Shown: one piece after another, positions 13,769 through 50,522 of the stretch
Numbering within the stretch: the stretch's first letter is position 1
Layout of the letters: each line of letters opens with the position of its first letter
Assembly (NCBI RefSeq): GCF_036507355.1
Contig: NZ_AP027877.1
Source of the DNA: Escherichia coli
GTDB lineage: Bacteria; Pseudomonadota; Gammaproteobacteria; Enterobacterales; Enterobacteriaceae
Length of the DNA stretch: 64,000 nucleotides
Direction: 5' to 3' (one strand)
Made by a program: the position numbers and the translations under genes
The notes under the pieces: model-generated
The model's database searches: none
What the model was told of the DNA's origin: nothing
What the model saw: only the letters and a program-made list of their open reading frames with translations

Positions 13769-15436
13769 ATGGCACAAGTCATTAATACCAACAGCCTCTC
13801 GCTGATCACTCAAAATAATATCAACAAGAACCAGTCTGCGCTGTCGAGTTCTATCGAGCGTCTGTCTTCTGGCTTGCGTATTAACAGCGCGAAGGATGAC
13901 GCCGCAGGTCAGGCGATTGCTAACCGTTTTACTTCTAACATTAAAGGCCTGACTCAGGCTGCACGTAACGCCAACGACGGTATTTCTGTTGCACAGACCA
14001 CTGAAGGCGCGCTGTCTGAAATCAACAACAACTTACAGCGTATCCGTGAACTGACGGTTCAGGCTTCTACCGGGACTAACTCCGATTCGGATCTGGACTC
14101 CATTCAGGACGAAATCAAATCTCGTCTGGACGAAATTGACCGCGTATCCGGTCAAACCCAGTTCAACGGTGTGAACGTACTGGCGAAAGACGGTTCGATG
14201 AAAATTCAGGTTGGTGCGAATGACGGCCAGACTATCACTATTGATCTGAAGAAAATTGACTCTGATACGCTGGGTTTGAGTGGATTTAATGTGAATGGTG
14301 GCGGGGCTGTGGCTAATACTGCAGCGACTAAAGATGATTTGGTCGCTGCATCAGTTTCAGCTGCGGTAGGTAATGAATACACTGTCTCTGCTGGCCTGTC
14401 GAAATCAACTGCTGCTGATGTTATTGCTAGTCTCACAGATGGTGCGACAGTAACTGCGGCTGGTGTAAGCAATGGTTTTGCTGCAGGGGCAACTGGAGAT
14501 GCTTATAAATTCAATCAAGCAAACAACACTTTTACTTACAATACCACCTCCACAGCGGCAGAACTCCAATCTTACCTCACGCCTAAGGCGGGGGATACCG
14601 CAACTTTCTCCGTTAAAATTGGTGGCACCAAGCAGGATGTTGTTCTGGCTAGTGATGGCAAAATCACAGCAAAAGACGGGTCTAAACTTTATATTGACAC
14701 CACAGGGAATTTAACCCAAAACGGTGGTGGTACTTTAGAAGAAGCTACCCTCAATGGCTTAGCTTTCAACCACTCTGGTCCAGCCGCTGCTGTACAATCT
14801 ACTATTACTACTGCGGATGGAACTTCAATAGTTCTAGCAGGTTCTGGCGACTTTGGAACAACAAAAACTGCTGGGGCTATTAATGTCACAGGAGCAGTGA
14901 TCAGTGCTGATGCACTTCTTTCCGCCAGTAAAGCGACTGGGTTTACTTCTGGCACTTATACCGTAGGTACAGATGGAGTTGTTAAATCTGGTGGCAATGA
15001 CGTTTATAACAAAGCTGACGGGACGGGATTAACTACTGACAATACCACAAAATATTATTTACAAGATGACGGGTCTGTAACTAATGGTTCTGGTAAAGCT
15101 GTGTATGCTGATGCAACAGGAAAACTAACTACTGACGCTGAAACTAAAGCCGAAACCACCGCCGATCCCCTGAAAGCTCTGGACGAAGCGATCAGCTCCA
15201 TCGACAAATTCCGTTCTTCCCTCGGTGCGGTGCAAAACCGTCTGGATTCCGCAGTCACCAACCTGAACAACACCACTACCAACCTGTCTGAAGCGCAGTC
15301 CCGTATTCAGGACGCTGACTATGCGACCGAAGTATCCAACATGTCGAAAGCGCAGATTATCCAGCAGGCCGGTAACTCCGTGCTCGCAAAAGCCAACCAG
15401 GTACCGCAGCAGGTTCTGTCTCTGCTGCAGGGTTAA
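13769..15436 (+). CDS. fliC: Flagellin FliC (H antigen), 555 aa
   Basis: Conserved flagellin N- and C-terminal domains flanking a Thr/Ala/Gly-rich variable central region. Confidence 0.95.
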
Positions 15437-25427: not shown

Positions 25428-25503
<76 letters not shown>

Positions 25504-25557
25504 GTTTAAAAGACATCGGCCTCAAGCGGATGTCTGGCTGAAAGGCCTGAAGAATTT

Positions 25558-25631
25558 GGCGCGTTAACAAAGCGGTTATGTAGCGGATTGCAAATCCGTC
25601 TAGTCCGGTTCGACTCCGGAACGCGCCTCCA
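25558..25631 (+). tRNA. cysT: tRNA-Cys (anticodon GCA)
   Basis: GGCGCGTTAACAAAGCGGTTATGTAGCGGATTGCAAATCCG...CGCGCCTCCA. Confidence 0.95.
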
Positions 25632-25643
25632 ATTTCTTCCCGA

Positions 25644-25730
25644 GCCCGGATGGTGGAATCGGTAGACACAAGGGATTTAAAATCCCTCGGCGTTCGCGCT
25701 GTGCGGGTTCAAGTCCCGCTCCGGGTACCA
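25644..25730 (+). tRNA. leuZ: tRNA-Leu (anticodon UAA), integration target of the island
   Basis: GCCCGGATGGTGGAATCGGTAGACACAAGGGATTTAAAATCCCTCGGCG...CCGGGTACCA, long variable arm. Confidence 0.95.
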
Positions 25731-25805
25731 TGGGAAACATCAGAATAATCAAAGCAATAAGCAGTGTCGTGAAACCACCTTCGGGTGGTTTTTTTGTGCA
25801 TGCAA
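25675..25805 (+). repeat. Left direct repeat (attL): 3' half of tRNA-Leu plus downstream terminator
   Basis: About 131 bp repeated with a few mismatches and a 2-bp indel at 51890-52022. Confidence 0.85.
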
Positions 25806-25969
25806 TTCACGCCCTGTGCATATCCTGTGCTCACGGGGTGCAATGAGCTGCAATCTTCAGCCTGGCAATGCCGAATCGAACGTGTCGCTTCCAGCATAGA
25901 GAACCAGGCCGCTTTGCCTGTTTTCCGGTACGCTTCCGGGAAGGGGGCCGCTGAGCAAGCTGTAATGCT

Positions 25970-26709
25970 CTAGCCACCCTGAGTACAAAGTTGCTTAATT
26001 CGTGCAATCACCTCATCTCTGTACTTCTGGTGTCCGCGCATAGCCCTTGGATGGGCAATTCTGAAACAGATTGCATTACCTGTTTTGAACTCCCATAGCT
26101 TCCCCGGAATGACTGCAGAAGTCTCATAGCCGCCCAGCTCAGTAAGCACCTGTTTTATGATGTAGTCTGTTCTCCGGGCTCCAGATGCAAAGATGATGAA
26201 ATCAGGCTCAAGGTGTTTAATTTGTACCGCCAGCAGCTTCAGCGAGGCAATATAACTTCCTGCACTTCATTTTGAGGGCGATTGAGAGGGGTCAGTCCGT
26301 CGTAATCCCACGCCAGTAGATTGGCATACACGATAGCCTGAGGAGGGATATTAAGCTCCCGGGCCAGCCTGAAATGATACTGCGTGAAGCGGCTACGTGA
26401 TTTGAGGTTAGTGGTGCCATAATTTTGTACCGGAAGATGTTTCCTGTAACGATCTACAGCTTCTTCAACCACCTGCCCGATGGTGACGTCAGGTATAAGT
26501 CCCAACACCCGTGATATCGTATTCTTACCATTCAGAGTATTCCAGCCAGCGGTTTCACGTCCAACCAGCATGATTTTTACCGGTGAGTGCCAGTATTCTT
26601 CAAAGGGCACGGGTAAAAAGACGCCTGAGTATTTATCCTCATTCAGGTTAAATGACTGGGCGTCAACTTCCTGCAATATCCGTTTGTACGCGTCTAATAG
26701 CTTTTCCAT
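25970..26709 (-). pseudogene. Uracil-DNA glycosylase-like gene (family-4-like), apparently split by a frameshift near 26239-26260
   Basis: ORF 26239-26709 (...KIMLVGRETAGWN...) continues in another frame to 25970 (...FRIAHPRAMRGHQKYRDEV...), resembling UDG motif A and the C-terminal HPS-type motif B. Confidence 0.45.
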
Positions 26710-26789
26710 TCTTCAATCCTGCCCCGTAATAAAAACACCTTCAGATATATATTATCTCCATGATATCAATCAGATACATGAGGATAATT

Positions 26790-27989
26790 ATGCAAAAATC
26801 CTTCCGGTTTACCAATGCATCCATCAAAGCCCTACCTGCAAATACTGATACCCGCTCTACAGAGCTTGAGGTATCTGATACCGAAGTTATTGGACTCAAG
26901 TGCCTCTCAGGTCGAACAGGCAACAAGCGCTTCCTTCTGCGGTATACATTCCACGGTACCAAAAAAAGTATCAGTATTGGCAGATTTCCTGAAATTGATG
27001 TGGGAACAGCCCGGCAAATAGCCCGTCGTCACAAAGAAGCGATTGCGCTGGGAAATGACCCTAAAGCGGAGCGAGATAACTACCGCGCGATGCCAACACT
27101 TGGTGAGTTTTTCCATCAAACCTATGTTCCTTATATAAAGCGCCATAAAAAGTCATGGGATAAGGATGTTCAGCGTTTCACGCAATACATTGAACCTCGT
27201 CTGGGAAAGATACGTTACTGCGATCTCAGGGCCAGAGAGATACAACAGGTGCTGTTTGACATGCTGGAGGGGCGTATTCACGGGCAGCAATATGCGCCGT
27301 CTACCTGTAACAGAGCCCTTGCTATTCTGAAAACGATGGGGCGTTATGCGTTGCGACAGGATGTGCTGGAAAAGAATGAAGCCGATAAGATCCCTTTGCT
27401 GAAAGAGAATAATCAGCGGACGCGCTTTTTTGATGCTGATGAGATCAGGCGCATTCTTGACGCTGCTACCCAATATCCCAACAAAGCTGCCGGGGGATTG
27501 ATAGCCATGTTGTTGTTAACCGGTACACGCAAATCAGAAATGCTTAATGTCAGGCATGAACATATCGACCGGGCCAATCGTACTCTGTTCATTCCTTATA
27601 CAAAAAATGGTCGCAGTCGGACGGTATATCTAAGCGATGCCGCATTATCGATTATTGATGCTATCCCACGAGTTGGCAGTAATCCGTATCTGTTCGCCAT
27701 TAAGGATAATGGAAAACCGATATCGGAACCCCGATGGGCATATGAAAAAATACTGGCACAGTGCGGTATAGACAAGAATGAAGTCTGTTTTCACACCACA
27801 CGTCATTCTGTTGCCTCTTTACTGGTTTCGAGTGGTCAATTCAGCCTGTATGACGTTAAAGCCCAACTGGCGCATGCCAGTATTCAGAGTACAGAACGTT
27901 ACGCGAAATTAACACCGGAACGTATGCGTCAGACAGGGCAGGGAGTGACTGACCTGCTTCTGAATACTGCGGCTACGAAGCAGATGTGA
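26790..27989 (+). CDS. Tyrosine recombinase / integrase (P4-like arm domain)
   Basis: N-terminal arm-binding region, catalytic HTTRHSVAS (HxxR) and TERYAKL (Tyr); start taken at MQKSFRF. Confidence 0.85.
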   Translation: MQKSFRFTNASIKALPANTDTRSTELEVSDTEVIGLKCLSGRTGNKRFLLRYTFHGTKKSISIGRFPEIDVGTARQIARRHKEAIALGNDPKAERDNYRAMPTLGEFFHQTYVPYIKRHKKSWDKDVQRFTQYIEPRLGKIRYCDLRAREIQQVLFDMLEGRIHGQQYAPSTCNRALAILKTMGRYALRQDVLEKNEADKIPLLKENNQRTRFFDADEIRRILDAATQYPNKAAGGLIAMLLLTGTRKSEMLNVRHEHIDRANRTLFIPYTKNGRSRTVYLSDAALSIIDAIPRVGSNPYLFAIKDNGKPISEPRWAYEKILAQCGIDKNEVCFHTTRHSVASLLVSSGQFSLYDVKAQLAHASIQSTERYAKLTPERMRQTGQGVTDLLLNTAATKQM

Positions 27990-28019: not shown

Positions 28020-28262
28020 ATGAGGATGCATTTAAAATGCCCACAGTGTGGCAGTTGTAATACATTGATAAGTTCAGCAGGAAAACTGCCATCGATAACC
28101 GATAATAAACGCTCTGGGTATATTAGCCTGGAGTTTTTACCTGAAATACTGAAAGAAATTATTAAGGCTATTAAAAAACTATTTGGATTCCTTGAACAGT
28201 GTGAAAGGAATAATGCTCCAGTGCTTATCTGTATGGACTGTGGGTATTATGAAAGAATTTAA
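28020..28262 (+). CDS. Small zinc-ribbon protein (two CxxC pairs)
   Basis: CPQCGSC ... CMDCGYY in an 80-aa ORF. Confidence 0.5.
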   Translation: MRMHLKCPQCGSCNTLISSAGKLPSITDNKRSGYISLEFLPEILKEIIKAIKKLFGFLEQCERNNAPVLICMDCGYYERI

Positions 28263-28357
28263 ATAGAAAACCAATAACTGTAAATAATAGTTATGCGGAT
28301 GTATAAAAACCCCGATACGTTAATCGTATCGGGTTTTTTGTTTATGAGGATCATTCA

Positions 28358-30324: not shown

Positions 30325-30546
30325 TCGAATCCATATCAATTCTATAAAATATGAAAATTAACGGGAGTAAATATACACTCCCGTTATAATGCAACCTTTT
30401 TTTAACTACTCAAATGATATTAATTTAGGTGCGACAGTGTTTTTATGACATGTTAAATTCGCAAGATCAATAATATCATGAAACAATTTTAGGTAATGCT
30501 GCCAACTTACTGATTTAGTGTATGATGGTGATTTTAAGGTGCTTGC

Positions 30547-30822
30547 GTGGCTTCCATTTCCATCAGATGTCCTTCCTGCTACGCTACTGAAGGCGTGGTG
30601 CGTAACGGCAAAAGCACTGCCGGACATCAGCGCTATCTCTGCTCTCATTACCGTAAAACATGGCAACTACAGTTCACTTACACCGCCTCTCAGCCCGGTA
30701 CGCACCAGAAAATCATTGATATGGCCATGAATGGCGTCGGATGTCGCGCCAGTGCACGCATTATGGGCGTTGGCCTCAACACGGTTTTACGTCACTTAAA
30801 AAACTCAGGCCGCAGTCGGTAA
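30547..30822 (+). CDS. insA: IS1 InsA
   Basis: [40 protein letters not shown]... Confidence 0.92.
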
Positions 30823-30848
30823 CCTAGCGCATACAACCGGGCGGTGAT

Positions 30849-31244
30849 GTGATTGTCTGCGCTGAAATGGACGAACAGCGGGGTTACGTCGGCGCTAAAT
30901 CACGCCAGCGCTGGTTGTTTTACGCGTATGACAGGATTCGGAGGACGGTTGTGGCGCACGTATTCGGTGAACGCACTCTGGCCACACTGGAGCGTCTTCT
31001 GAGCCTGCTGTCGGCCTTTGAGGTCGTGGTATGGATGACGGATGGCTGGCCGCTGTATGAATCCCGCCTGAAGGGAAAGCTGCACGTTATCAGCAAGCGT
31101 TACACTCAGCGCATTGAGCGACATAATCTGAATCTGAGACAACATCTGGCAAGGCTGGGACGGAAGTCACTGTCGTTCTCAAAATCGGTGGAGCTGCATG
31201 ACAAGGTCATCGGGCATTATCTGAACATAAAACACTATCAGTAA
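30849..31244 (+). CDS. insB: IS1 InsB (transposase part; InsAB' made by frameshift)
   Basis: ...[47 protein letters not shown]... Confidence 0.9.
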
Positions 31245-31435
31245 GTTGGAGTCATTACCTGTTTTTGCTGCATATTTGGCCATGCACTTTTGCCATCAAG
31301 TCAGAGAGACAGGGGCACCGTAAGAGACGAAGGTTGCTGCCTGTGATGAGAGGTTATCAGCAATTACAATGGTCACTAATATTTACATAATGTCGGAGAA
31401 CATCATTTTAGTTGAAATAATATAAAGGCGGTTCT

Positions 31436-31810: not shown

Positions 31811-34474
31811 TCAGACTGGAAGACAGAATGTCGGATATTTACGGGCTATGATATCCATCAGTGACTTCATTCGCGGTGTTACAGAACTAAATTTCATTTG
31901 GGGTATTTTTGCTCTTACCGCATTTTTTACATCAGTCACCGTTACTGAATAGCCTTCTGACGTCAGCCATTCAGCAACCTCTTTACAGGAATAACTTTTT
32001 TTATCTTTCAGCATCAGCCCCCATTGGCACTGAGTCAGCGCCCGGAGAAATAGTCTGACTAAAATATCATCACTACGTTTGCTTCCGACTTTTAGTTTCA
32101 TATCAGAAAACACCGTCCGGCAATAGAGAAAATCACACCAGTCATCCCAGTCAGCCAGGGTCTTCAGTGTATGCGTTTGCCGCCAGTCGTCGAAAAGGGA
32201 GCGTTGCTGCAGAGCCTCTTCCATATTATCCCACGGGCGGGAAAACATCAGTAGATGCCCTTCATTCATGGCGGGCCGTACGGGCTGGCGTTTGAAATCG
32301 AATTCCAGATTAAGACGGATATCCTGTTCCCGGGATACCAGATCGCTTTCCGAGAGCCACATCTCACGCGTTGATATCAACGTACTTCGGGATAACGTCT
32401 GACCGGGTAAACGATTAAGGTAAAGATCTACCATATAGTCGTTATAGTCACTGCGTGGAATATCGGCAGGAGGTTTGACGCCAGCCCTGGCATGAACAAC
32501 AGGTTTTCCCTGAATCGCTTTATAGGTTAACTGCCCCCGGGTTTTCATGGCGATAAGCTGGCTGACCTCATGCTTACATGTCAACATTGATGAACCCGGA
32601 TCAACAATATCGCACAGCGACTGGAAGCGGGAAGACAGTGGACCGCTCATGTTTATCTTGTCAAGTGGGCAATTTGTCAAAAAACCATCGGTTGTGACGC
32701 TGACAACCGATGAATCAGAAGGCAAAGCATTCATGAGTTCCCCGACAACGGCGCGGATAAATCCCGTCACATGCGCAGCAAAGAATGGCTGAGTAACCGA
32801 TGATGGTGGGAGGGATCTGTTTAATCCACGGGCAGTATCAAAGGCGGTTTTGGCGCGAAGGCCCTGAGCAAGTTTGCCATAAAGCGAGTTGCCAATTTCT
32901 TTCCAGAATTTCTCCTCCAAAGAACCCTTAATATGGCGATTACGGTTCTCACGGACCTGTTGAACAAAGGGAAGAAACACCGATGTTGATTCGCTGTTAT
33001 GTGGGGAGGTGTCACAGATCCAGGGGACGATGATCCCATTATGGATCGTCATCTCTGCCCCGAGCGACAGAGCAAGTTCGATTTCAGGTGCCGTTGCCCA
33101 TGATTCGCCACTTAATGGAAAGAATAACCCATATTGATCGGTCCGAACCGGCAGGCTGGGATAGGGAACTGATTCCGGGAACCGAAATGTGACAAGCGCA
33201 AATCCCATCACATGCCCACAGTAATCGTCCGGATTTTTACTGAGGCGGATGTTTCCGTAATCGGGTATGAGGATATCTAATAGCCCGGTGGTATACGCTC
33301 CAGCCAGATCGTAGTCATACCAGTGATCAGACGGTGTAACCCCCATCATAAAACACTCATTGCGTCCGCCGTGGTAACAGTTGATCGGGAACGTTTCAAA
33401 CAACTCTCTTGAAGGAACACTGGCGGGGTTTTTAATCGTCCGGAATGCCTGTTTCTCCGTGAGCCAGAGTTCACGGGTTTTAATGTGTGTCCCAAGGCAG
33501 ACTTCAGGAGACATATTGTTTTCTTTAAGTGTTTTGGTGAACCGTGAAACTGCCATCGCCCCGATGGTGGCGGGGACACGATCAATCATCAGCTCCCGGG
33601 CGCAAAAATTGCGAACCTGTAAAGCATAACGAACCGCAATCTCGGCATCCCGCAGAGCATAGGCTTCAAACCCTGCTCTGTCGCCCAGAAGATATTCACG
33701 CATATTGGTTATGGAATAAGGTGCAGGAATGGTGAGTTTGGGAAGACCCAGTAATTCACCACATTCAGCCAGACCCATACCCCCGGGAGTGATAAGCAGT
33801 GTATCGATGAAAGCTACGTTACTGCAACGCGGAGGGGAAGTTCGTTTGTCAAACATTATCTGTTCAGTCTTTACGCGACGTTCCTGCTGTTCATCAAAAT
33901 CGATACCGTAACGATTTTTGAAGCTGCTGACAGTACCGCGTATTCCTTTCAGAAGAATTTTGTAGTCTGACCAGAAATTGGCAAAGGAGGCGATATCCGC
34001 ACGAATGAAATGCGCATATATATTAATAATACCGGGCCATTTTGTAATCACACCCGTTTCAAGAAGCGGTGTAATCGTTTGACAGAGAAATTCCTTAAAA
34101 GACAGTCGGGATTTTTTCTGTGAGTCAGGTGGATAGATAATGTTCGATATACCAGTGTTATCGGGTAAGACGACATAACTCTGATATGACAGAATATCAT
34201 TCTGTTGTGTTTCAGGATTGAAAACATATTCGGTATCAAAACCGATATGGAGTGTCAGGTCACTTGAAATAACAGATACTTTTTTTGATGCAGGTGGTAT
34301 CACAGGATAATCATCAAGCGTTTTAGGTCTTTTAAGATTGAGCGCTGGCTCTGAAGTCACGGACTGATACCCCGAGGCGGCAGCGAGGATATCCTGCAAA
34401 TTATGGCTCATAGTTAACTCCGAAAAAATGCCGGGAGCTGTGTCCCGGCATAAAGAATCAAGATTTAATAACAT
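31811..34474 (-). CDS. Family-B DNA polymerase of the primer-independent PolB (piPolB) type
   Basis: Exo I FDTEY, motif B KEIGNSLYG (KxxxNSxYG), motif C-like VTTDG, and KTRG in AMKTRGQLTY in place of the KxY motif; 887 aa. Confidence 0.85.
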   Translation of the reverse strand: MLLNLDSLCRDTAPGIFSELTMSHNLQDILAAASGYQSVTSEPALNLKRPKTLDDYPVIPPASKKVSVISSDLTLHIGFDTEYVFNPETQQNDILSYQSYVVLPDNTGISNIIYPPDSQKKSRLSFKEFLCQTITPLLETGVITKWPGIINIYAHFIRADIASFANFWSDYKILLKGIRGTVSSFKNRYGIDFDEQQERRVKTEQIMFDKRTSPPRCSNVAFIDTLLITPGGMGLAECGELLGLPKLTIPAPYSITNMREYLLGDRAGFEAYALRDAEIAVRYALQVRNFCARELMIDRVPATIGAMAVSRFTKTLKENNMSPEVCLGTHIKTRELWLTEKQAFRTIKNPASVPSRELFETFPINCYHGGRNECFMMGVTPSDHWYDYDLAGAYTTGLLDILIPDYGNIRLSKNPDDYCGHVMGFALVTFRFPESVPYPSLPVRTDQYGLFFPLSGESWATAPEIELALSLGAEMTIHNGIIVPWICDTSPHNSESTSVFLPFVQQVRENRNRHIKGSLEEKFWKEIGNSLYGKLAQGLRAKTAFDTARGLNRSLPPSSVTQPFFAAHVTGFIRAVVGELMNALPSDSSVVSVTTDGFLTNCPLDKINMSGPLSSRFQSLCDIVDPGSSMLTCKHEVSQLIAMKTRGQLTYKAIQGKPVVHARAGVKPPADIPRSDYNDYMVDLYLNRLPGQTLSRSTLISTREMWLSESDLVSREQDIRLNLEFDFKRQPVRPAMNEGHLLMFSRPWDNMEEALQQRSLFDDWRQTHTLKTLADWDDWCDFLYCRTVFSDMKLKVGSKRSDDILVRLFLRALTQCQWGLMLKDKKSYSCKEVAEWLTSEGYSVTVTDVKNAVRAKIPQMKFSSVTPRMKSLMDIIARKYPTFCLPV

Positions 34475-35096
34475 TTACTACAGATTTGAAAATATCGGTT
34501 TTGCGTGATTCATCATCTACATGGATAAAGGAAACGAGTTTCCTGCCTGCTTTAATCAGGATACCGCGTTGCGTCTTTTCCACAGACGGGGTAACGTGTG
34601 CAGATAACAGACAATGTTCATGTAAATGAAGAAACTTTTTTGAGGCGTAGCCGCCATGTAATCGGGCTTGAATGTCAAGATACATATCATCAAGAGAACC
34701 GGGTTCTCCTGATTCACTCAATACCGGATAACCCTTCTTATCAAAGAGGTTAAGGATAGATTTACTATCATGTTCGAACAGGGTAACACCGTAAATGTAT
34801 TTCATTCGAAAGGTGAGGGAATCGGTGGTGTAGACCTCCTCCTGACGATTGAAATTTTTGAGACGCCTGGCTAATTCATTAAAAACAGCACGAGCAGTAG
34901 CCGTGTCCTGCAGGGTGTAGGTATAAAGTACGAAGCCATCTGTGCCGATGAGCTTTACTAAGTTGTCCATAATCGTGATAGCGAGAACTAATGCAAAGGA
35001 TAGATATTTTTCATCGTTGTCTACAGCTGTGTTTGCTGCTTCAGGAAGAATGTTCAGTGCATTATTAGCATTATTTGCTGTGTTCTTAGTAACCAT
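34458..35096 (-). CDS. Hypothetical protein (212 aa) co-transcribed upstream of the polymerase
   Basis: Overlaps the polymerase start by 17 nt and the AlpA-like gene stop by 11 nt. Confidence 0.55.
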   Translation of the reverse strand: MVTKNTANNANNALNILPEAANTAVDNDEKYLSFALVLAITIMDNLVKLIGTDGFVLYTYTLQDTATARAVFNELARRLKNFNRQEEVYTTDSLTFRMKYIYGVTLFEHDSKSILNLFDKKGYPVLSESGEPGSLDDMYLDIQARLHGGYASKKFLHLHEHCLLSAHVTPSVEKTQRGILIKAGRKLVSFIHVDDESRKTDIFKSVVNVIKS

Positions 35097-35286
35097 TTAT
35101 ATCACCTTTAAGTTTGTTTTGACGATGTGCATTTTCCCACTCAACAATATCATCAAGAGAGAATCGTATAGCCCGCCCAATTCTGATGAAGGGCGGGAGT
35201 TTTCCGGGGTTGCGCGATATATCTGACGCAACCGTGGATGCAGAAAGATTAAATCTTTCTGCGAACTGCTTAATGGTTAAATACAT
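35086..35286 (-). CDS. AlpA-family phage-type regulator / excisionase-like HTH protein
   Basis: 66 aa, MYLTIKQFAERFNLSASTVASDISRNPGKLPPFIRIGRAIRFSLDDIVEW, typical AlpA/Xis HTH_17. Confidence 0.75.
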   Translation of the reverse strand: MYLTIKQFAERFNLSASTVASDISRNPGKLPPFIRIGRAIRFSLDDIVEWENAHRQNKLKGDINGY

Positions 35287-35436
35287 AAACCTCCGGTTTC
35301 AGAGAATAAGAAGCCACGCGGATTTAATATCAATCCACATTCTGTGATGACTTAATGCAGGGCCCTGCAGAAGCATGCAATGACAATACCGTCCTTAAAC
35401 GAGTGTTGCATCAATCACGAATCACAGATCATAGGT

Positions 35437-36564
35437 TCATTTTGTGTCATAACTTTCTATGACCTGAGAAACCACTGCGTGTGATGTCGCTGCATTGTGA
35501 AAAGCGTAGCGACGGGTCGCCGTGAGTGAATGGTGATTTAGCAGATGGGAAGCGATTGCAATATCCCCGGTCGCCTGTAGTACCCGGGTGGCAAAGGTAC
35601 GGCGCAGGTCATGCATCCGCAGGTTATCAATGTTGGCATCCCGACAAATACGGGCAAAGGTTGCACGCGGATATGCCAGAGGGCGGGCATTGTCGGTTAG
35701 TTGTGGAAAAATGTAAGTTTTGCTGAGCATCAGGTCCTGCTGGCACTGGACAACTGCAATGGCTGGAAGTGCAAGTGGGCAGGTGAAAGGGTGTCCGGAC
35801 TTTGTATCAGGCAGTATGAGTTGATGCATATCCGGGTGCCAGTACTCCCATTTCAGGGTACATACCTCACCAATACGCATCCCCGTATAAAGAGCAAGCA
35901 ATATAGAATCAGCTGCCGGTGTTTGCAGCGCTGTTGCTGCGTTAATAAAGCGCGGGATTTCTGTCGCTGACAGTGTGCGATAGCGAATGTTATTTTCTTT
36001 CAGATAGCGGACATGTGACATCGGGGAATGTGTGATCCATCCAGCACGTACTGCCAGAGAGCATATTTTGGACAATATTGCGAGGATACGGTTTACTGTT
36101 GACGGACGTAATTTTTCCCGTAAGCCAGCAGCATATTGTTCTAGTTCTCCTGCCGTGATGTCGCGAAGTTGCCGCTTGCCCCAGAACGGGCGAACGTAGA
36201 GGTTGAGTTTTGACAACTCTGACTGAGGACTCTTTTTATACAACTGCAAATCCGGTAGCCACAGGTCATTGATGGCCTGTTCCACAGTGAATCGACGGGA
36301 CTGAACAGCAAGGCGATTTTTATCGGCAAGCAGGTTCATCACATGCTGACGGGCATCCTCAATGCAGAGATGAGGGAATTCACCCAGTGTTTCATATATA
36401 CGTTGATTTTTGATGGTGGCGCGAAAGGCCAGCGTGATCCGTTTTGGATATACCAGTGCACGCAGGTTTTGGCACTGAATATCACGGTATTCCTGACAAC
36501 CCGTGAGGGGATGTGGAAGTTGGTGAATTGATTTGTTGCTGAAACGCAGATCCAGAATAGGCAT
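35437..36564 (-). CDS. Second tyrosine recombinase / integrase
   Basis: Catalytic HDLRRTFATRV (HxxR) and TRRYAF (Tyr), plus core-binding-like N-terminal region. Confidence 0.85.
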   Translation of the reverse strand: MPILDLRFSNKSIHQLPHPLTGCQEYRDIQCQNLRALVYPKRITLAFRATIKNQRIYETLGEFPHLCIEDARQHVMNLLADKNRLAVQSRRFTVEQAINDLWLPDLQLYKKSPQSELSKLNLYVRPFWGKRQLRDITAGELEQYAAGLREKLRPSTVNRILAILSKICSLAVRAGWITHSPMSHVRYLKENNIRYRTLSATEIPRFINAATALQTPAADSILLALYTGMRIGEVCTLKWEYWHPDMHQLILPDTKSGHPFTCPLALPAIAVVQCQQDLMLSKTYIFPQLTDNARPLAYPRATFARICRDANIDNLRMHDLRRTFATRVLQATGDIAIASHLLNHHSLTATRRYAFHNAATSHAVVSQVIESYDTK

Positions 36565-39778: not shown

Positions 39779-41302
39779 ATGAACGACAAAATCAGTCAGG
39801 ACACGATCAACAAAGCCCTGTGGGCCGCGTGTGATACGTTCCGTGGCACCATCAGTGCTGATACCTATAAAGACTTTATCCTTACCATGCTGTTCCTCAA
39901 GTACATTTCAGATGTCTGGCAGGATCACTACGACGAATATAAAGTGCAATATGGCGATGCGCCGGAACTGATTGAAGCGATGATGGCGAACGAGCGCTTC
40001 GTGTTGCCGAAAAGCGCCAGTTTCTATGCGTTGTACGAGCGACGTCATGAGCCGGGCAACGGTGAGCGTATCGATCAGGCGCTGCATGCGATTGAAGAAG
40101 CCAACGGCACCAAACTGAAAGATGCCGGGAAAAGTGTCTTCCAGGATATTTCGTTTAACACTGACCGTCTGGGCGAAGAAAAACAGAAGAACACCATCCT
40201 GCGTCAGTTGCTGGAAGACTTTGCCGGTGAAGATCTTAACCTGAAGCCAAGCCGTGTCGGTACGCTGGACGTTATCGGTAATGCTTACGAATATCTGATC
40301 AAAAACTTTGCTGCCAGCGGTGGGCAGAAAGCCGGGGAATTCTATACCCCGCCGGAAGTTTCGGACCTGATTGCTGAACTGCTCGATCCGCAACCGGGTG
40401 ATACCATCTGCGATCCGGCCTGTGGTTCGGGTTCATTGTTGATGAAGTGTGGGCGTAAAATTGTCTCCGGGCATGATAGTCGTAACTATGCATTGTTCGG
40501 TCAGGAAGCGATCGGTTCTACGTGGTCGCTGGCGAAAATGAATATGTTCCTGCACGGGGAAGACAACCATAAAATCGAGTGGGGCGATACCATTCGTAAC
40601 CCGAAGCTGCTCGATAAAAATGGCGACCTGATGCTGTTTGATATCGTGACCGCTAACCCACCGTTCAGCCTCGATAAGTGGGGCCATGACGAGGCCGAGA
40701 ACGATAAGTTTGGCCGTTTTCGTCGCGGTGTACCGCCGAAGACTAAAGGAGATTACGCTTTTATCTCGCATATGATCGAAACCCTGAAACCGGGAACTGG
40801 CCGTATGGGCGTAGTTGTGCCACACGGTGTGCTTTTCCGTGGCTCCAGCGAAGGTAAAATTCGCCAGAAACTGATCGACGAAAATTTGCTGGATGCGGTA
40901 ATTGGTCTGCCGGAAAAACTGTTCTACGGTACGGGGATTCCGGCTGCGATTCTGATTTTTAAAAAGCAGAAAGTTGATGACAAGGTGCTGTTTATCGATG
41001 CCAGCCGTGAATTCAAGGCAGGTAAAAACCAGAACCAGCTTAGCGAAGAAAACATTAAGAAAATCGTCAAGACCTACCGTGATGGCGATAACGTCGAGAA
41101 ATACGCCTATCTTGCCAGCCTGAAGGAAATTCAGGACAACGACTATAATCTCAATATCCCGCGCTATGTCGATACCTTTGAAGAAGAGGATGAGATTGAC
41201 CTGCTGGCGGTGCGAGCAGAACGCGAGCAACTGAAGGCGGAATTGGCGAAGCTGGAAACGGAGATGGCTGGATATTTGAAGGAGTTGGGTTATGGCTCGT
41301 GA
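39779..41302 (+). CDS. hsdM: Type I restriction-modification methyltransferase subunit HsdM
   Basis: N6-adenine MTase motifs (DPACGSGS, TANPPFS), 507 aa. Confidence 0.92.
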   Translation: MNDKISQDTINKALWAACDTFRGTISADTYKDFILTMLFLKYISDVWQDHYDEYKVQYGDAPELIEAMMANERFVLPKSASFYALYERRHEPGNGERIDQALHAIEEANGTKLKDAGKSVFQDISFNTDRLGEEKQKNTILRQLLEDFAGEDLNLKPSRVGTLDVIGNAYEYLIKNFAASGGQKAGEFYTPPEVSDLIAELLDPQPGDTICDPACGSGSLLMKCGRKIVSGHDSRNYALFGQEAIGSTWSLAKMNMFLHGEDNHKIEWGDTIRNPKLLDKNGDLMLFDIVTANPPFSLDKWGHDEAENDKFGRFRRGVPPKTKGDYAFISHMIETLKPGTGRMGVVVPHGVLFRGSSEGKIRQKLIDENLLDAVIGLPEKLFYGTGIPAAILIFKKQKVDDKVLFIDASREFKAGKNQNQLSEENIKKIVKTYRDGDNVEKYAYLASLKEIQDNDYNLNIPRYVDTFEEEDEIDLLAVRAEREQLKAELAKLETEMAGYLKELGYGS

Positions 41303-42566
41303 TTCGCTTTACCCAGTGAGCGTTAAAGCTGGAAAACCGATCCTTGGAATGCTACCTACAGGATGGCAAAAGTTATCATTAGAAAAGTGCTTAAATATAG
41401 AGGCAAGAAAGGCATATATACAAGATAATCAAGAGTATGACTTAGTTACAGTAAAGCGCTCCAGAGGTGGCGTAATAAGACGTGAGCATCTTAAAGGAAA
41501 AGATATCTCCGTAAAAAGTCAATTCTATATTAAAGAAGGCGACTTTCTCATATCAAAACGACAAATTGTGCACGGTGCTTGCGGTCTTGTACCTAAAGAA
41601 CTTTCTGGCTCAATTGTATCGAATGAATATTGTGTGCTTACAGGGAAGTCCGGTTTTTATCTTCCTTATATGGAATTTCTATCGGAGTCTCTATATTTCC
41701 AGCAAACCTGCTTCCACTCTAGCATTGGTGTGCACATAGAGAAAATGATTTTTAAGTTAGATAGTTGGTTTAAGTGGCCATTTAATATCCCCCCACTGTC
41801 TGAACAAAAGAGAATCGTTAAAATCCTGTCAACCTGGGATAAGGCGATTTCGGTGACGGAAAAGCTTCTCACCAACAGTCAGCAGCAGAAAAAAGCCCTG
41901 ATGCAGCAATTGCTTACCGGGAAAAAACGCTTGCTGGATGAGAGGGGGGTGAGGTTTAGTGGGGAGTGGAAGAGAGTAAAACTGGGTGCGATAGCCGATA
42001 TGAACAGTGGAGGTACTCCGAAATCAACGGTTGAAGAGTATTATGGCGGGAATATCCCATGGGTATCTATTTCTGATATGACATCTAATGGAAAGTGGAT
42101 TGCTACAACTGAAAAATATCTGACTGAATTAGGATTGAACAGTTCATCCGCAAGAATATATCCAAAAAACTCGGTTCTTTATGCTATGTATGCTTCTATA
42201 GGTGAATGCAGCATTGCTGCTGTAAATTTAACATCTTCGCAGGCAATCTTGGGTATTAGACCAAAAGATTGTTTAAATTATGAGTTTTTATATTTCTATC
42301 TTACATCATTAAAAGAAAAAATAAAACTGCAAGGCCAGCAAGGTACACAGTCCAACCTAAACGCCGGAATGGTTAAAGAGTTTGAACTAGACTTACCCAG
42401 TATAAGAGAACAACAAAAAATCGCCGCCGTCCTGTCCGTCGCCGATGCCGAAATCTCCACGCTGGAGAAAAAACTCGCCTGCCTGAGAGATGAGAAAAAA
42501 GCCCTGATGCAACAGCTACTGACTGGCAAACGTCGTGTTAAGGTCGATGAGGCGGTTGCCGAATGA
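41292..42566 (+). CDS. hsdS: Type I R-M specificity subunit HsdS
   Basis: Two target-recognition domains separated by repeated conserved helices (KKALMQQLLTGKKRL / KKALMQQLLTGKRRV); overlaps hsdM. Confidence 0.9.
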   Translation: MARDSLYPVSVKAGKPILGMLPTGWQKLSLEKCLNIEARKAYIQDNQEYDLVTVKRSRGGVIRREHLKGKDISVKSQFYIKEGDFLISKRQIVHGACGLVPKELSGSIVSNEYCVLTGKSGFYLPYMEFLSESLYFQQTCFHSSIGVHIEKMIFKLDSWFKWPFNIPPLSEQKRIVKILSTWDKAISVTEKLLTNSQQQKKALMQQLLTGKKRLLDERGVRFSGEWKRVKLGAIADMNSGGTPKSTVEEYYGGNIPWVSISDMTSNGKWIATTEKYLTELGLNSSSARIYPKNSVLYAMYASIGECSIAAVNLTSSQAILGIRPKDCLNYEFLYFYLTSLKEKIKLQGQQGTQSNLNAGMVKEFELDLPSIREQQKIAAVLSVADAEISTLEKKLACLRDEKKALMQQLLTGKRRVKVDEAVAE

Positions 42567-43246
42567 AACTGACGAAAAGCGGTCCACTGACTGACCGGGA
42601 AATCGACTGGCTGGAAGAAATATTAATGAAGTATGGAATGGATGATTCTGTACTCTGTTTCTCTGAGCTGGATGGATTGCTGACGGCGATTTTATCAGGT
42701 CCAAATATGGTTTCACCCAATATCTGGCTGAGTGCTATTTGGGGAGGAGGCGATTATCATCCGAAATGGTCATCTGAGAGAGAGATGGAGCGTTTTGTCA
42801 GTCTGTGTTTTCAGCATATGAACGATATCGCTGGTTGCCTTTATGACGCCCCTGAACTGTTTGAGCCGATTTTCAATGAGCGTGAGGTAAAGGGGGAAAA
42901 ATATACCATTGTGGAAGAGTGGTGTTTTGGTTATATGAAAGGAAAGTCACTGGATGACTGGTCTGGTCTTCCCGGTGAGTTACGGCCTTCTCTGGAAGTG
43001 ATCGCTCTTCATGGCGTGGAGAAGAATTTTCCTGTACTTGAGAAAATGACCAGAGAGCAGTTTGAGAAAAGTATTTCCCTTATTAAGCCTGCTGCACTGG
43101 CACTTTATCAGTACTGGTTGTCAGTGAGAATGTCAGAGGCATCATCCCGGCCTGTTCCAGTGAAGGGGGCAGAAAACATGCCCGGGCGAAATGACCCGTG
43201 TCCGTGTGGCAGCGGTAAAAAATTTAAGAAGTGCTGTCTGCATTGA
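42563..43246 (+). CDS. YecA-like UPF0149 protein with C-terminal SEC-C metal-binding motif, nested in the hsd operon
   Basis: Aligns along its length with chromosomal YecA at 52141-52806; ends [20 protein letters not shown]; ATGA overlap with the hsdS stop. Confidence 0.8.
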   Translation: MKLTKSGPLTDREIDWLEEILMKYGMDDSVLCFSELDGLLTAILSGPNMVSPNIWLSAIWGGGDYHPKWSSEREMERFVSLCFQHMNDIAGCLYDAPELFEPIFNEREVKGEKYTIVEEWCFGYMKGKSLDDWSGLPGELRPSLEVIALHGVEKNFPVLEKMTREQFEKSISLIKPAALALYQYWLSVRMSEASSRPVPVKGAENMPGRNDPCPCGSGKKFKKCCLH

Positions 43247-43295
43247 TGAATCTTCATGTGACCAGTAGCGAGTAGCGCCAGAAAGAAAAGGATTA

Positions 43296-46200
43296 ATGAT
43301 GAACCAGACGTACACGCCTAAATTCCAGGAAGAATACAGCGCCAAAATTCCGGCACTGACGTTACTGACCAGCCTCGGCTGGACGTTTTTATCTCCGAAA
43401 CAGATTATGGATTACCGGGGCTATAAACAGGATGAGGTGGTGCTGCGTCCGGTTCTGCGTGAAGAGCTGTCGAAGCGTTCCTTTATGGCGGGTGGCAAAA
43501 CCTGCCAGTTATCGGAAAAAGCACTGGATAACCTGATATCACAGGTCTGTTCTCCGGCGCTGAATGAAGGGCTGCTCAAAGCCAATGAACGGATGTATAA
43601 CCATCTGCTCTACGGTATCGCCGTCACGGAGTTTGTCGATGGCAAGAAGGTGAACCCCACCATTGCGCTGATCGACTGGGAACATCCGGAAAGTAACCAG
43701 TTCCATTTTACCGAAGAATTTACGGTATTGCGGTCAGGCGGTGTCGAAACCCGCAGGCCGGATATTGTGTGTTTTGTGAATGGTATCCCGCTGGCCGTCA
43801 TTGAAGCGAAAAGCCCGGCGGGTCACGGCAAGAAAGGGCCAACCATTGACGAAGGGATATCCCAGAGTATCCGCAATCAGCTCAACGACGAAATCCCGCA
43901 GCTGTTTGCTTACAGCCAGATATTACTGTCGATTAACGGGCATGACGGGCGCTACGGTACCTGTCATACACCAATGAAATTCTGGGCGGCATGGCGCGAA
44001 GAAGATATTACTTACGCGCAGATGTATGCGCTGCGCAACCATAAGTTATCGACTGAACAAATTCATGCGTTGTTTGATGATCGTCCTTCAGTCGATCTCA
44101 AATGGTATCAACAGTTAATCGATGGGGGGGAACTGGCAGTCAGCGGGCAGGATAAGCTGCTCATCAGTCTGCTTTCACCGGAACGTCTGCTGGAGATGAC
44201 CCGCTTCTTCACCCTGTTTGATAAAAAAACCGGAAAAATTGTTGCCCGCTATCAGCAGGTGTTCGGTATTAAAAGACTGCTGGAACGCATCAGTACCCGC
44301 AGACCAGACGGGGGCAGGGAAGGTGGGGTGATCTGGCATACCACGGGGTCAGGTAAATCTTACACCATGGTATTCCTCAGCAAGGCGCTGATTCTTCATG
44401 ACAGCCTGAAGCAGTGTCGTATTGTGGTGGTGACGGACCGCGTGGACCTTGAAGGGCAGCTCAGCGGCACTTTTGTCTCTGGTGGCGAACTGGCAGGGAA
44501 GGATGATAAGGCCAAAGCGATGGCAACCTCAGGTCAGAAGCTGGCACAGCAGATTGGCTCTGGTAAAGAACGTATAATCTTTACCCTTATCCAGAAATTT
44601 AACTCAGCGACAAAATTGCCTGAATGCGTCAACACCAGCCCCGACATCATCGTTCTGATTGATGAAGGACACCGTAGCCAGGGTGGTGAGAACCATGTGC
44701 GAATGAAACTGGCACTGCCGAACGCCGCCTTTGTGGCATTTACTGGTACGCCATTGCTAAAAGAAGATAAGACCACCAATAAATTCGGGCCGATTGTCCA
44801 CGCTTATACCATGCAGCGAGCGGTAGAAGATAAAGCCGTTACACCTTTGCTGTATGAAGAACGTATTCCCGACCTTGAGGTTAACGATCGGGCAATAGAT
44901 GCCTGGTTTGATCGTATTACCGATGGGTTAAGCGAAGCGCAAAAAGCCGACCTTAAGCGTAAATATGCCCGTAAAGGTGAGGTTTATAGTGCAGATGATC
45001 GCATCCGTCTGATCGCACTCGATATCGCCACGCACTTCTCGAAGAATATTGATGAGGGGCTGAAAGGCCAGCTTGCCTGCGACAGCAAGATTTCCGCCAT
45101 CAAATATAAAAAGTATCTTGATGAAGCCGGGTTGTTTGAGTCAGCAGTAGTTATCAGCCCGCCGGATACCCGGGAAGGGAATACCGAAGTGGATGAAAGC
45201 AAACTGCCGGAAGTGACGAAATGGTGGAAGGATAATGTCGGCACGCAGGATGAGTCTGTGTATACCCGTAATATCATCAGTCGTTTCGATACCGATGAGA
45301 AGCTCAAATTGCTGATAGTCGTTGATAAACTGCTCACCGGGTTTGATGAGCCGAAGAATACCGTGCTGTATATCGACAAGCCGCTTAAGTCCCACAACCT
45401 TATCCAGGCGATTGCGCGGGTGAACCGACTGCATCCACTAAAAAAGTTCGGTCTGCTGATTGATTATCGCGGTATTCTGGCTGAGCTGGACACGACTATC
45501 GGCAAATATCAGGACCTCGCCTCCCGAACTCAGGGCGGATACGATATCAAAGATATTGACGGGCTGTACAGCGCCATGAGCTCTGAATACAAGCGCCTGC
45601 CGCATCTGTATAACCAGCTGTGGGCCATATTTGCCGGTGTTAAAAACAAAAATGATACTGAGCAGTTACGTGCGGTACTGGTGCCTAAAATGGAAGAACG
45701 TGACGGAGAGATGGTCGATATCCATCAGAAAACCCGTGATGATTTCTTCGAGGCGTTAACGGCCTTTGCCGGATGCCTGAAAGTGGCACTGCAGTCCGCT
45801 ACCTTCTTCACCGACAAGAGCTTTACGGAACAAGACCGAAATCTCTATAAAGAAACCGTAAAACAGATGTCCAGCCTGCGCCAGTGGGCGATGCAGGTAA
45901 GTGGAGAGCAGGTCAATTATGACGACTACGCTGAGCAGGTGAAAAAACTGCTGGATAAGCATGTCACCGGCGTTGAGGTTCGTGAACCGGATGGCGTGTA
46001 TGAAGTCGGTAAAATGGGCAAGAGCGAAAAGCCCGAAGAGTGGGACAACAATAAAACCCGCAATGAAACCGACATCATTAAAACCCGCGTGACGAAGATG
46101 ATTGAGCAGGAATTGCGTGATGACCCGTATGCTCAGGAGGCATTTTCAAAACTCCTGCGTATGGCTATCGAAGAGGCTGAAAAACTGTTTGACCATCCGC

Positions 46201-46583
46201 TGAAACAGTACCTTTTGTTCCGTGAATTTGAAGAACAGGTTGAAGCCCGTAAGCTCAGCGATATCCCGGATGCACTGGCGGTAAACAAGCATGCTCAGGC
46301 GTATTACGGTGTATTTAAAAAAGAGCTACCTGAGGTTTTTGCGGTAAACGACGTTCAGGTGCAGGATAAGTGGACCAAGCTGGCTTTTGAAGTGGACAAC
46401 ATTATCGTCAAAGCGGTGGCAGAAAACTCCCTGAACCCCCAGGACATTGAGAAAGTCGTTAAGACAAGTCTGCTACCACTGCTGTTTACGGCCTGCCGGG
46501 AAATTGGTGCCGGAATGAATCAGGTTAACCGTATTGTGGAAACCATCATCCAGATACTGCGCGTTGGTTTGATGAAATCATGA
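43296..46583 (+). CDS. hsdR: Type I restriction endonuclease subunit HsdR
   Basis: 1095 aa; Walker A TGSGKSYT and DEAH-like box DEGHRS. Confidence 0.92.
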   Translation: MMNQTYTPKFQEEYSAKIPALTLLTSLGWTFLSPKQIMDYRGYKQDEVVLRPVLREELSKRSFMAGGKTCQLSEKALDNLISQVCSPALNEGLLKANERMYNHLLYGIAVTEFVDGKKVNPTIALIDWEHPESNQFHFTEEFTVLRSGGVETRRPDIVCFVNGIPLAVIEAKSPAGHGKKGPTIDEGISQSIRNQLNDEIPQLFAYSQILLSINGHDGRYGTCHTPMKFWAAWREEDITYAQMYALRNHKLSTEQIHALFDDRPSVDLKWYQQLIDGGELAVSGQDKLLISLLSPERLLEMTRFFTLFDKKTGKIVARYQQVFGIKRLLERISTRRPDGGREGGVIWHTTGSGKSYTMVFLSKALILHDSLKQCRIVVVTDRVDLEGQLSGTFVSGGELAGKDDKAKAMATSGQKLAQQIGSGKERIIFTLIQKFNSATKLPECVNTSPDIIVLIDEGHRSQGGENHVRMKLALPNAAFVAFTGTPLLKEDKTTNKFGPIVHAYTMQRAVEDKAVTPLLYEERIPDLEVNDRAIDAWFDRITDGLSEAQKADLKRKYARKGEVYSADDRIRLIALDIATHFSKNIDEGLKGQLACDSKISAIKYKKYLDEAGLFESAVVISPPDTREGNTEVDESKLPEVTKWWKDNVGTQDESVYTRNIISRFDTDEKLKLLIVVDKLLTGFDEPKNTVLYIDKPLKSHNLIQAIARVNRLHPLKKFGLLIDYRGILAELDTTIGKYQDLASRTQGGYDIKDIDGLYSAMSSEYKRLPHLYNQLWAIFAGVKNKNDTEQLRAVLVPKMEERDGEMVDIHQKTRDDFFEALTAFAGCLKVALQSATFFTDKSFTEQDRNLYKETVKQMSSLRQWAMQVSGEQVNYDDYAEQVKKLLDKHVTGVEVREPDGVYEVGKMGKSEKPEEWDNNKTRNETDIIKTRVTKMIEQELRDDPYAQEAFSKLLRMAIEEAEKLFDHPLKQYLLFREFEEQVEARKLSDIPDALAVNKHAQAYYGVFKKELPEVFAVNDVQVQDKWTKLAFEVDNIIVKAVAENSLNPQDIEKVVKTSLLPLLFTACREIGAGMNQVNRIVETIIQILRVGLMKS

Positions 46584-47335: not shown

Positions 47336-47393
47336 CTTATCAATATGAGTTCTTAAGGGTTTGGTCAGTCTCGTTAATGTAGGGAGTATAATA

Positions 47394-49232: not shown

Positions 49233-49290
49233 CAAAGTTAGGGTGTTAATTAATCTGTAATGGCATCATGATTTTTAAAAGGAGGTTGAA

Positions 49291-50418: not shown

Positions 50419-50522
50419 AGTAATATGACTGAGTGATGACGATCTTTTTTAAATTGTGGATTATTAGGCTGGTAATTGAAGCGCCGAATAGACAGATATT
50501 GGAATAAAAGGAGAATATTCAA

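Follow-up and report, generated by a model that had tools for sequence, protein, structure and literature searches.

In the 64-kb stretch of E. coli DNA analysed here (64,000 nt of contig NZ_AP027877.1, hereafter the window), the 3' half of leuZ, the gene for tRNA-Leu(UAA), occurs twice in direct orientation together with the terminator that follows it. The two copies lie 26 kb apart and differ slightly, which raises the question of how the second copy arose, which of the two is native to the chromosome, and where the foreign DNA joins the host DNA. The repeats are very probably recombinant att sites, formed when a 26-kb pipolin entered leuZ by tyrosine-recombinase recombination and its attP brought along its own tRNA 3' half and terminator. 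As such they are an already described feature of pipolins, real but ordinary. Conserved att-like direct repeats of E. coli pipolins overlap a tRNA-Leu gene between pgsA and yecA (PMC7385651, PMC9710591, PMC11551731). These repeats, treated in PMC5695915 as well, have been used to delimit pipolins, one of them serving as the reference query of ExplorePipolin, and the att-mediated mobilisation of pipolins "still needs to be confirmed in vivo" (PMC9710591).

The repeat pair and the tRNA operon

The direct repeats occupy positions 25675–25805 (131 nt) and 51890–52022 (133 nt), and both the repeat search and the pairwise alignments reproduce exactly the coordinates, the few substitutions and the 2-bp indel given in the preliminary description. 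The repeat search returns the pair as two collinear blocks, 25675–25748/51890–51963 and 25747–25805/51964–52022, separated by the indel alone. In the global alignment 128 of 133 columns are the same, and the copies differ by three substitutions and one 2-bp indel: C at 25738 on the left corresponds to G at 51953 on the right, C at 25741 to A at 51956, and A at 25800 to C at 52017, while the dinucleotide AA at 51962–51963 is present in the right copy only. Identity is lost sharply outside the pair on either side. Chance similarity can be excluded, since only three families of direct repeats of at least 30 nt exist in the window and two of them are the halves of the att pair; the collinearity extends over the 133 columns and is not a short chance stretch of tRNA.

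The left repeat lies at the end of the glyW-cysT-leuZ operon (25428–25730, + strand), in which ARAGORN recognises tRNA-Gly (25428–25503), tRNA-Cys (25558–25631) and an intact tRNA-Leu(UAA), anticodon taa (25644–25730), the last being leuZ, the integration target. The annotation of the empty site in K-12 J53 lists these three tRNAs too. On the + strand the left repeat (B-O-P') comprises leuZ positions 32–87 and the 75 nt downstream, so that it starts at the final base of the 5' arm of the anticodon stem, and it would be element-borne to the right of the crossover. The right repeat (P-O-B', + strand) contains only tRNA positions 32–87 (51890–51945); ARAGORN calls no tRNA within 51890–52022 and folding gives no tRNA fold. 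This repeat appears to hold the displaced native 3' part of leuZ, followed by the native terminator hairpin and T-run, and it ends 118 nt upstream of the chromosomal yecA (52141–52806, + strand), an open reading frame annotated at the empty site as well. The island thereby has a whole tRNA gene at one end and, in direct orientation at the opposite end, a fragment of that gene, an arrangement that is one of the hallmarks used by Islander. In the pipolin papers the repeat overlapping the tRNA is by convention called attR (PMC7385651, PMC9710591); in the orientation of the window this is the left repeat.

Each copy contains a hairpin of the form GAAACCACC-UUCG-GGUGGUUUU followed by a U-run. The left one (25771–25795, + strand) has a 9-bp stem, a UUCG loop and seven T, with a folding energy of −15.3 kcal/mol (z −3.6), and the right one (51988–52012, + strand) has the same stem and loop and likewise seven T, with −14.8 kcal/mol (z −2.8). 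Both predicted structures are G+C-rich hairpins with a U-run directly 3', as is characteristic of Rho-independent terminators, and they are predicted to end transcription on each side of the island. Direct folding found both, while a consensus terminator scan of the window reported neither; we suspect that the simple scan extends the stem of the att hairpin into the T-run. The earlier picture of an intact leuZ at the left repeat, and of a tRNA 3' fragment with a second terminator hairpin in front of yecA, is borne out by the tRNA search, the alignment and the folding.

The island between the repeats

The 26 kb between leuZ and yecA are bounded by the att repeats and begin with a gene conserved in pipolins (26239–26709, − strand; phrog_29550, profile positions 1–154 of 293), which is truncated or frameshifted here. 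Its homologue is annotated as "frameshifted" in the HKUOPY1 island and is an intact 741-nt gene in other pipolins. Next to it, adjoining the tRNA-side att, is a tyrosine recombinase whose N-terminal part (residues 17–106) is an arm-DNA-binding domain (26760–27989, + strand; Pfam Arm-DNA-bind_3, 5e-14, and Phage_integrase, 1e-23; phrog_1 integrase), which corresponds to IntSXT of the pipolin literature. A second tyrosine recombinase, corresponding to IntP2 (35437–36564, − strand; Pfam Phage_integrase, 3e-21), is accompanied by an excisionase-like helix-turn-helix protein (35086–35286, − strand; phrog_66 "excisionase and transcriptional regulator", 4e-7), an arrangement that has been described for pipolins (PMC11551731). 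The subfamily names IntSXT and IntP2 are those of that paper and are putative here.

The hallmark gene, which codes for the primer-independent family B DNA polymerase piPolB, is an 887-aa open reading frame on the − strand (31811–34474), whose likely start at M22 would put the end of the gene at 34411. Its profile matches are weak (PHROG DNA polymerase, 8e-7; Pfam DNA_pol_B_2, E = 0.0098) and NCBIfam has no family for it. What settles its identity is the piPolB-specific KH-X8-KTRG motif, KHEVSQLIAMKTRG, with K613, H614, K623 and R625 counted from M22, the second methionine; the same residue numbers have been published for the piPolB of E. coli 3-373-03_S1_C2 (PMC5695915). In piPolBs KTRG replaces the KxY of other family B polymerases. 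The DxE, KxxxNSxYG and TTD motifs are present as well.

The island also contains small conserved genes, including a homologue of DUF2787, which is annotated in the 99.9% identical HKUOPY1 island, and an IS1 remnant. The right part (39779–51704, + strand) is defence cargo according to PADLOC hits and the RefSeq annotation of homologous pipolins. It includes the hsdM, hsdS and hsdR genes of a type I restriction-modification system, a YecA-family protein (PDC-S12, 42563–43246), an open reading frame at 46580–47335 whose homologues in other pipolins are annotated as M48 metallopeptidase, and a DUF262/HEC-06-like protein, PDC-S26 and an Mrr-like restriction endonuclease. The same defence systems are listed for enterobacterial pipolins (PMC11551731).

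The preliminary description had called the element a pipolin, and this identification is secured by the KH-X8-KTRG motif at the published residue numbers. Together with att direct repeats at a tRNA-Leu gene between pgsA and yecA, an arm-domain recombinase near att, a second recombinase with its excisionase, and DUF2787, the motif identifies the island, by its sequence, as a typical E. coli pipolin. Its site, repeat architecture and hallmark gene are those of the E. coli pipolins described previously (Redrejo-Rodriguez 2017; Flament-Simon 2020; ExplorePipolin 2022; Mateo-Caceres 2024), and published elements have the same core genes and cargo types (type I restriction-modification, PDC-S12, HEC-06, PDC-S26). 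Unlike other pipolins, the element in the window carries IS1 where those carry WYL and DUF726 genes, and its left-end gene is truncated.

Allelic differences and the position of the crossover

The left junction was searched in 5426 complete E. coli genomes and is present in 500 of them, leaving about 4900 without it. In the sampled empty-site genomes, the match to the left flank ends at 25805 (query 1–406, with a few rows ending at 395–398) and that to the right junction starts at 51890 or 51891. In K-12 J53 the order is uvrC-pgsA-glyW-cysT-leuZ-yecA-tyrP, with a single repeat between the two flanks, which is the empty site that Islander looks for, and at each of the four variable positions its attB agrees with the right copy. 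All sampled rows with a single-copy site that overlaps tRNA-Leu match the 133-nt right copy at 100% identity, while a copy at least 99% like the left repeat occurs in only 183 of 5424 genomes. All four differences are therefore located in the leuZ-side copy.

The same distribution of alleles is observed elsewhere. In six further E. coli pipolins or pipolin remnants the yecA-side repeat is of the host type, save for one 1-nt insertion, and the leuZ-side repeat carries element alleles. Pipolins of other E. coli strains share the 2-bp deletion as well as the changed bases at 25738 and 25741. Across genera, the deletion is present in all attLs that were aligned, and the two substitutions are found in Shimwellia, Buttiauxella and Intestinirhabdus. 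Since the right copy equals the empty site, the differences are all leuZ-side and the three clustered ones are recurrent, the comparison supports a polymorphism between attP and attB as the source of the divergence, as opposed to decay since insertion. Of the two explanations that had been offered for the divergence, an attP that differed from attB thus stands, and an old insertion does not.

On its own, the alignment of the two copies in the window confines the crossover to 25675–25737, its left bound being the start of the identity between attL and attR at 25675. Other pipolins narrow this interval. In strain 2452 the T stem of leuZ in the leuZ-side repeat has a compensatory change of a C-G pair to T-A, while the yecA-side copy has the host pair. 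The 2452-type left repeat occurs in 141 genomes, with two att copies in 39 of the 40 listed. The T-stem allele is also present at pipolin junctions in Citrobacter and Buttiauxella. Because this T-stem variant is linked to the element in the 2452-type attL, the crossover would have to lie to the left of 25704. The one listed genome with a single 2452-type copy was considered as an excision scar and rejected, as it contains a pipolin devoid of its right end, beside an IS4-family element.

A narrower interval is obtained from the pipolin of Citrobacter sp. Res13, whose right end is 98.9–100% identical to the window up to 51906, 91.4% identical in 51907–52022 and 52.6% identical beyond 52022 (Fisher's exact test for the switch at 51906/51907, p = 2e-4), while the flanking host genes of the two are about 77–82% identical. 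The drop in identity, set against the level of the host genes, points to a switch from element to host DNA within 51890–51906, equivalent to 25675–25691, a 17-nt interval that rests on this one cross-genus comparison. The two att copies of Res13 have the same variable-arm type, so that this pair by itself carries no signal. The interval (25675–25691, + strand; ATTTAAAATCCCTCGGC) comprises the last base of the 5' arm of the anticodon stem, the anticodon loop (TTTAAAA, 25676–25682), the 3' arm of the stem and the first bases of the variable arm. Mapping against the att sites of other pipolins, which the preliminary description had proposed as a check, hence places the strand exchange at or adjoining the anticodon loop, probably within 25675–25691 and firmly within 25675–25703. 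A further indication comes from an unrelated P2-like prophage, whose identity block begins 1 nt from that of the pipolin, at the 5' edge of the anticodon loop.

The mode of insertion suggested by these data would be as follows. The attP of the circular element would have a 131-nt copy of its own, spanning the final 56 nt of leuZ and the next 75 nt, terminator hairpin included, and strands would be exchanged at or near the anticodon loop, within 25675–25691. The leuZ-side repeat to the right of the crossover would be element DNA, which rebuilds a working tRNA gene and its terminator, and the host 3' half and terminator would end up ahead of yecA, at a distance of 26 kb. In this position the native terminator would stop read-through from the last gene of the island, which is on the same strand as yecA. 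The three substitutions and the indel would represent differences between the element copy and the E. coli copy, not mutations acquired since insertion.

Split tRNA genes that are restored by the incoming island, with a displaced fragment left behind, are well known, and a class with a crossover in the anticodon loop exists (PMC4383910). The gene split, restoration and displaced 3' fragment at leuZ are those of these "A" class islands (Williams 2002; Islander, PMC4383910), and comparative mapping places the crossover where that class has it. The identity block in the window differs in running 75 nt past the 3' end of the tRNA, so that the terminator of the operon is duplicated too. Most described identity blocks of tRNA islands end at or near the tRNA end.

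Three other accounts of the repeat pair were weighed against site-specific insertion at the anticodon loop. If the copies had been alike at integration and had diverged afterwards by mutation, an old insertion would explain why they differ at 5 of 133 columns, and there is decay elsewhere in the element, namely the IS1 remnant and the truncated left-end gene. This is highly improbable, for all four differences are in one copy while the other equals the attB of K-12 and the sampled empty sites, the left alleles recur in other E. coli pipolins and in other genera, and both junctions are 99.9–100% identical to those of the HKUOPY1 island. The probability is smaller still, practically negligible, that a transposase-like or self-synthesizing mechanism, as in the PolB-encoding casposons and polintons, produced the repeat by duplicating the target site. 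The family B polymerase of the element brings such a mechanism to mind, and pipolins have been placed among the self-synthesizing elements (PMC7385651). Casposons and polintons are recognised by terminal inverted repeats and an exact, short target duplication; a search of the island ends found no terminal inverted repeats pairing them, which argues against a mechanism of the transposon type, and the repeat is 131 nt long and inexact, one copy having foreign alleles. The element has two tyrosine recombinases and an Xis-like gene, and the P-O-P' middle junctions in tandem arrays (see below) are what site-specific recombination predicts. The remaining account accepts the junctions and places the exchange further 3', in the T loop, at the 3' end of the tRNA, or by homologous recombination anywhere in the 131-nt block. 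It would agree with the interval of 25675–25737 that the window alone allows, and sites in the T loop and at the T/acceptor junction are common for tRNA islands (PMC4383910). Mosaic left repeats also exist, with host-type alleles at the equivalents of 25738–25745 in the WP4 remnant and in the middle att of O145; they show that gene conversion or homologous exchange between copies occurs as well and could blur the mapping. The T-stem alleles, with element bases of both strands on the leuZ side and host bases on the yecA side, the sharp identity switch at 51906/51907, and the start of the pipolin and P2-like blocks within 1 nt of each other at the 5' edge of the anticodon loop nevertheless make an exchange further 3' rather improbable.

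Candidate arm motifs, recombinases and re-use of the site

Beyond the repeats, the two ends of the island share a 21-nt motif, CCTGTGCAnATnCTGTGCTCA, which consists of two CTGTGC hexamers 11 nt apart and has exactly two matches in the window, compared with none expected. One (CCTGTGCATATCCTGTGCTCA, 25813–25833, + strand) lies in the P' arm, 8 nt past the left repeat, and is a candidate arm-type integrase site; the other (CCTGTGCAGATTCTGTGCTCA, 51763–51783, + strand) belongs to the P arm and precedes the right repeat by 106 nt. The left-end motif is kept in all seven E. coli pipolin left ends that were chosen without reference to it. On the right side, conservation among pipolins with unrelated cargo begins at the motif, and partial matches to the right junction start at query positions 261–266, or 51760–51765 of the window. 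The lone hexamer shows no enrichment in the window (28 occurrences against 32 expected), and 2452-type elements have a mutated form of the copy that lies inside the tRNA, for which reason only the double motif is proposed as a site. Its placement and conservation, together with the Arm-DNA-bind_3 domain of the integrase that adjoins the tRNA, lead us to propose that the motifs at 25813 and 51763 are arm-type sites of the 26760–27989 integrase.

A scan with the motif over one genome per species gave 15 loci, in Enterobacter, Citrobacter, Shimwellia, Buttiauxella, Franconibacter, Atlantibacter, Intestinirhabdus and E. coli. Every match in a P' arm is preceded by the terminator segment of about 75 nt, and upstream of this segment, wherever the locus extends far enough, is the 3' half of tRNA-Leu. 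The stem of the hairpin is invariant in the pipolin attLs of eight genera, while the loop is TTCG, TCCG or TACG; the Atlantibacter attL has one extra base directly before the stem. A tRNA-Leu(UAA) is called at 10 of 10 cross-genus attLs scanned. Alignment of ten attL tRNAs (those of the window, of 2452 and of eight cross-genus loci) reveals compensatory double changes in five pairs, and in Buttiauxella warmboldiae a chimera of a host-type 5' half (G7) and a 2452-type 3' half (U66) results in a G·U pair. The compensatory changes and the chimera indicate that the 3' halves travel with the element and stay under selection for tRNA function.

The site is used repeatedly and by more than one kind of element. 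A synthetic P-O-P' query, with which an excised circular or plasmid-borne attP was sought in complete E. coli assemblies, found no such form; all 14 genomes that matched have chromosomal tandem arrays with three att copies each. Of these arrays, that of strain 2017.10.01CC was examined and has a full pipolin beside leuZ and a remnant beside yecA, an order that agrees with later arrivals entering the rebuilt tRNA gene. The P-O-P' sequences of E. coli SCPM-O-B-8794 and Intestinirhabdus alba, both draft genomes, were considered as circles and rejected, as a second, different pipolin left end lies beside leuZ in each genome; they are middle junctions like those of the complete genomes. In O157:H7 a P2-like prophage remnant is situated between the same repeats, and in O145:H28 a P2-like prophage is followed by a middle att and then by a pipolin remnant. 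These prophages have the same target and orientation as pipolins, with a repeat of about 125 nt that includes the terminator hairpin, and, like pipolins, they form tandem arrays with pipolin remnants. They differ in having phage structural genes, in the position of the integrase, which is at the yecA-side end, unlike that of the pipolin, and in their arm sequences, which lack the 21-nt motif at the junctions seen.

Of the two pipolin recombinases, the arm-domain integrase at 26760–27989 is most likely the enzyme for leuZ, and IntSXT is reported to be ubiquitous in pipolins and encoded near the integration site (PMC11551731). The internal IntP2-like enzyme with its excisionase (35086–36564) is an unlikely candidate in its stead. 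In its favour, it is paired with the Xis-like gene, the att is shared by P2-like prophages that have a phage integrase, and prophage IntP2 enzymes probably share the target (PMC11551731). Against this, the prophage integrase is equally distant from both pipolin recombinases (24–26% identity to either), and the one detectable arm-binding domain, which would match the arm motifs, is that of the arm-domain integrase, the universal recombinase of pipolins (PMC11551731). Moreover, three degraded remnants between att copies all keep the left-end gene and none keeps the IntP2-like gene, while two of the three retain the arm-domain integrase in truncated form.

With the arm-domain integrase as the enzyme, the identity block might be part of a functional attP module of about 290 bp (51760–51889 joined to 25675–~25840), and no mere passive by-product of integration. 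The module would be bounded by the motifs and bound by the arm domain of the integrase, and the 7-nt anticodon loop would be the place of exchange. Read-through from the tRNA operon into the island would be blocked by the terminator that the element brings, and transcription from the island into yecA by the displaced native one. This extended reading is put forward tentatively, and we give it slightly less than an even chance.

For the organism, the repeats precisely delimit a 26-kb defence island, and the sole tRNA-Leu(UAA) gene found in the window appears as a chimera of host and element. The literature search found no paper combining "pipolin" and "attP", and neither the crossover position nor the arm motifs are present in the descriptions of pipolins that were found; the crossover map and the arm motif may therefore be small additions. 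In the pipolin field, this comparative mapping of the crossover to the anticodon loop and the candidate arm motif offer concrete substrates for excision and integration experiments, while the 14 genomes with tandem arrays and the P2-like prophages at the same att demonstrate re-use of the site. If the attP module exists as outlined, pipolin integration and excision could be demonstrated on a defined substrate for the first time, in vivo or in vitro, and cells carrying a pipolin would make a chimeric tRNA-Leu(UAA) with a foreign 3' half.

Repeated motifs in the attachment arms

The arms that adjoin the two att repeats of the pipolin, the P' arm beside the leuZ-side repeat and the P arm beside the yecA-side repeat, each carry one copy of a 21-nt motif, CCTGTGCAnATnCTGTGCTCA (25813-25833 and 51763-51783), which is made of two CTGTGC hexamers 11 nt apart. 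No copies other than these two are present in the window. The right-hand copy coincides exactly with the onset of conservation among pipolins with unrelated cargo, and the motif is a candidate arm-type integrase site.

GCAAT(G/C/T) pentamers, counted by eye and post hoc, also occur in the arms, with four on the plus strand within about 70 nt of the P' arm (25801-25870) and two in the P arm (51837-51862). The cluster could form a further group of protein-binding sites, or it could have arisen by chance.

Prophages and tandem elements at leuZ

The leuZ att of the pipolin is also used by P2-like prophages of E. coli O157:H7 (locus L007, repeats at 28151-28275 and 49270-49402) and O145:H28 (locus L008, att at 14827-14959). 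The prophage repeat is about 125 nt long and starts 1 nt away from the start of the pipolin repeat. The prophage integrase is located at the yecA-side end and shows only 24-26% identity to the two pipolin tyrosine recombinases. In the O145:H28 locus the prophage and a pipolin remnant are arranged in tandem.

Middle att junctions of the P-O-P' type, found in E. coli 2017.10.01CC (locus L025, 20001-20376), E. coli SCPM-O-B-8794 (L011) and Intestinirhabdus alba (L023), show that a pipolin can stand in tandem at leuZ with a second pipolin or a remnant of one. In E. coli 2017.10.01CC the intact element is the one adjoining leuZ. Three att copies are present in 14 complete E. coli genomes. The pipolin of E. 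coli 2017.04.02CC (L009) has a single att copy. From about 39346 onward the right part of the element is interrupted beside an IS4-family (ISVsa5) transposase, which suggests that the second att copy, on the right, has disappeared.

Cargo and decay of the window pipolin

The type I restriction-modification operon of the island contains, between hsdS and hsdR, a YecA-family gene (42563-43246, plus strand; PADLOC PDC-S12), a paralogue known as a frequent cargo gene of pipolins. It is 57% identical to chromosomal yecA (52141-52806, plus strand), which lies directly outside the right att repeat. Within hsdS, a 38-nt direct repeat (41887-41924 and 42493-42530) codes for a repeated KKALMQQLLTGK segment, which we take to be the conserved repeat that usually separates the target-recognition domains in the specificity subunits of type I systems.

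An IS1 remnant with inverted repeats (30478-31273) takes the place of the WYL/HTH and DUF726 genes of other pipolins (L005, L006), and is about 308 bp shorter than its counterpart in the otherwise near-identical pipolin of E. coli HKUOPY1. The conserved left-end gene (26239-26709, minus strand) is truncated, covering only positions 1-154 of the 293 in profile phrog_29550; it is intact, at 741 nt, in other pipolins, and its HKUOPY1 homologue is annotated as frameshifted.

Probable transfer between genera

The right-end cargo of the window pipolin (Mrr-like nuclease and PDC-S26), together with the P arm, has relatives of 98.4-98.6% identity in other genera, namely in Citrobacter sp. Res13 (L015, 1-1747) and in Intestinirhabdus alba (2849-5284). 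The flanking core genes of Res13, by comparison, are only ~77-82% identical to those of the window, a difference that indicates recent inter-genus transfer.
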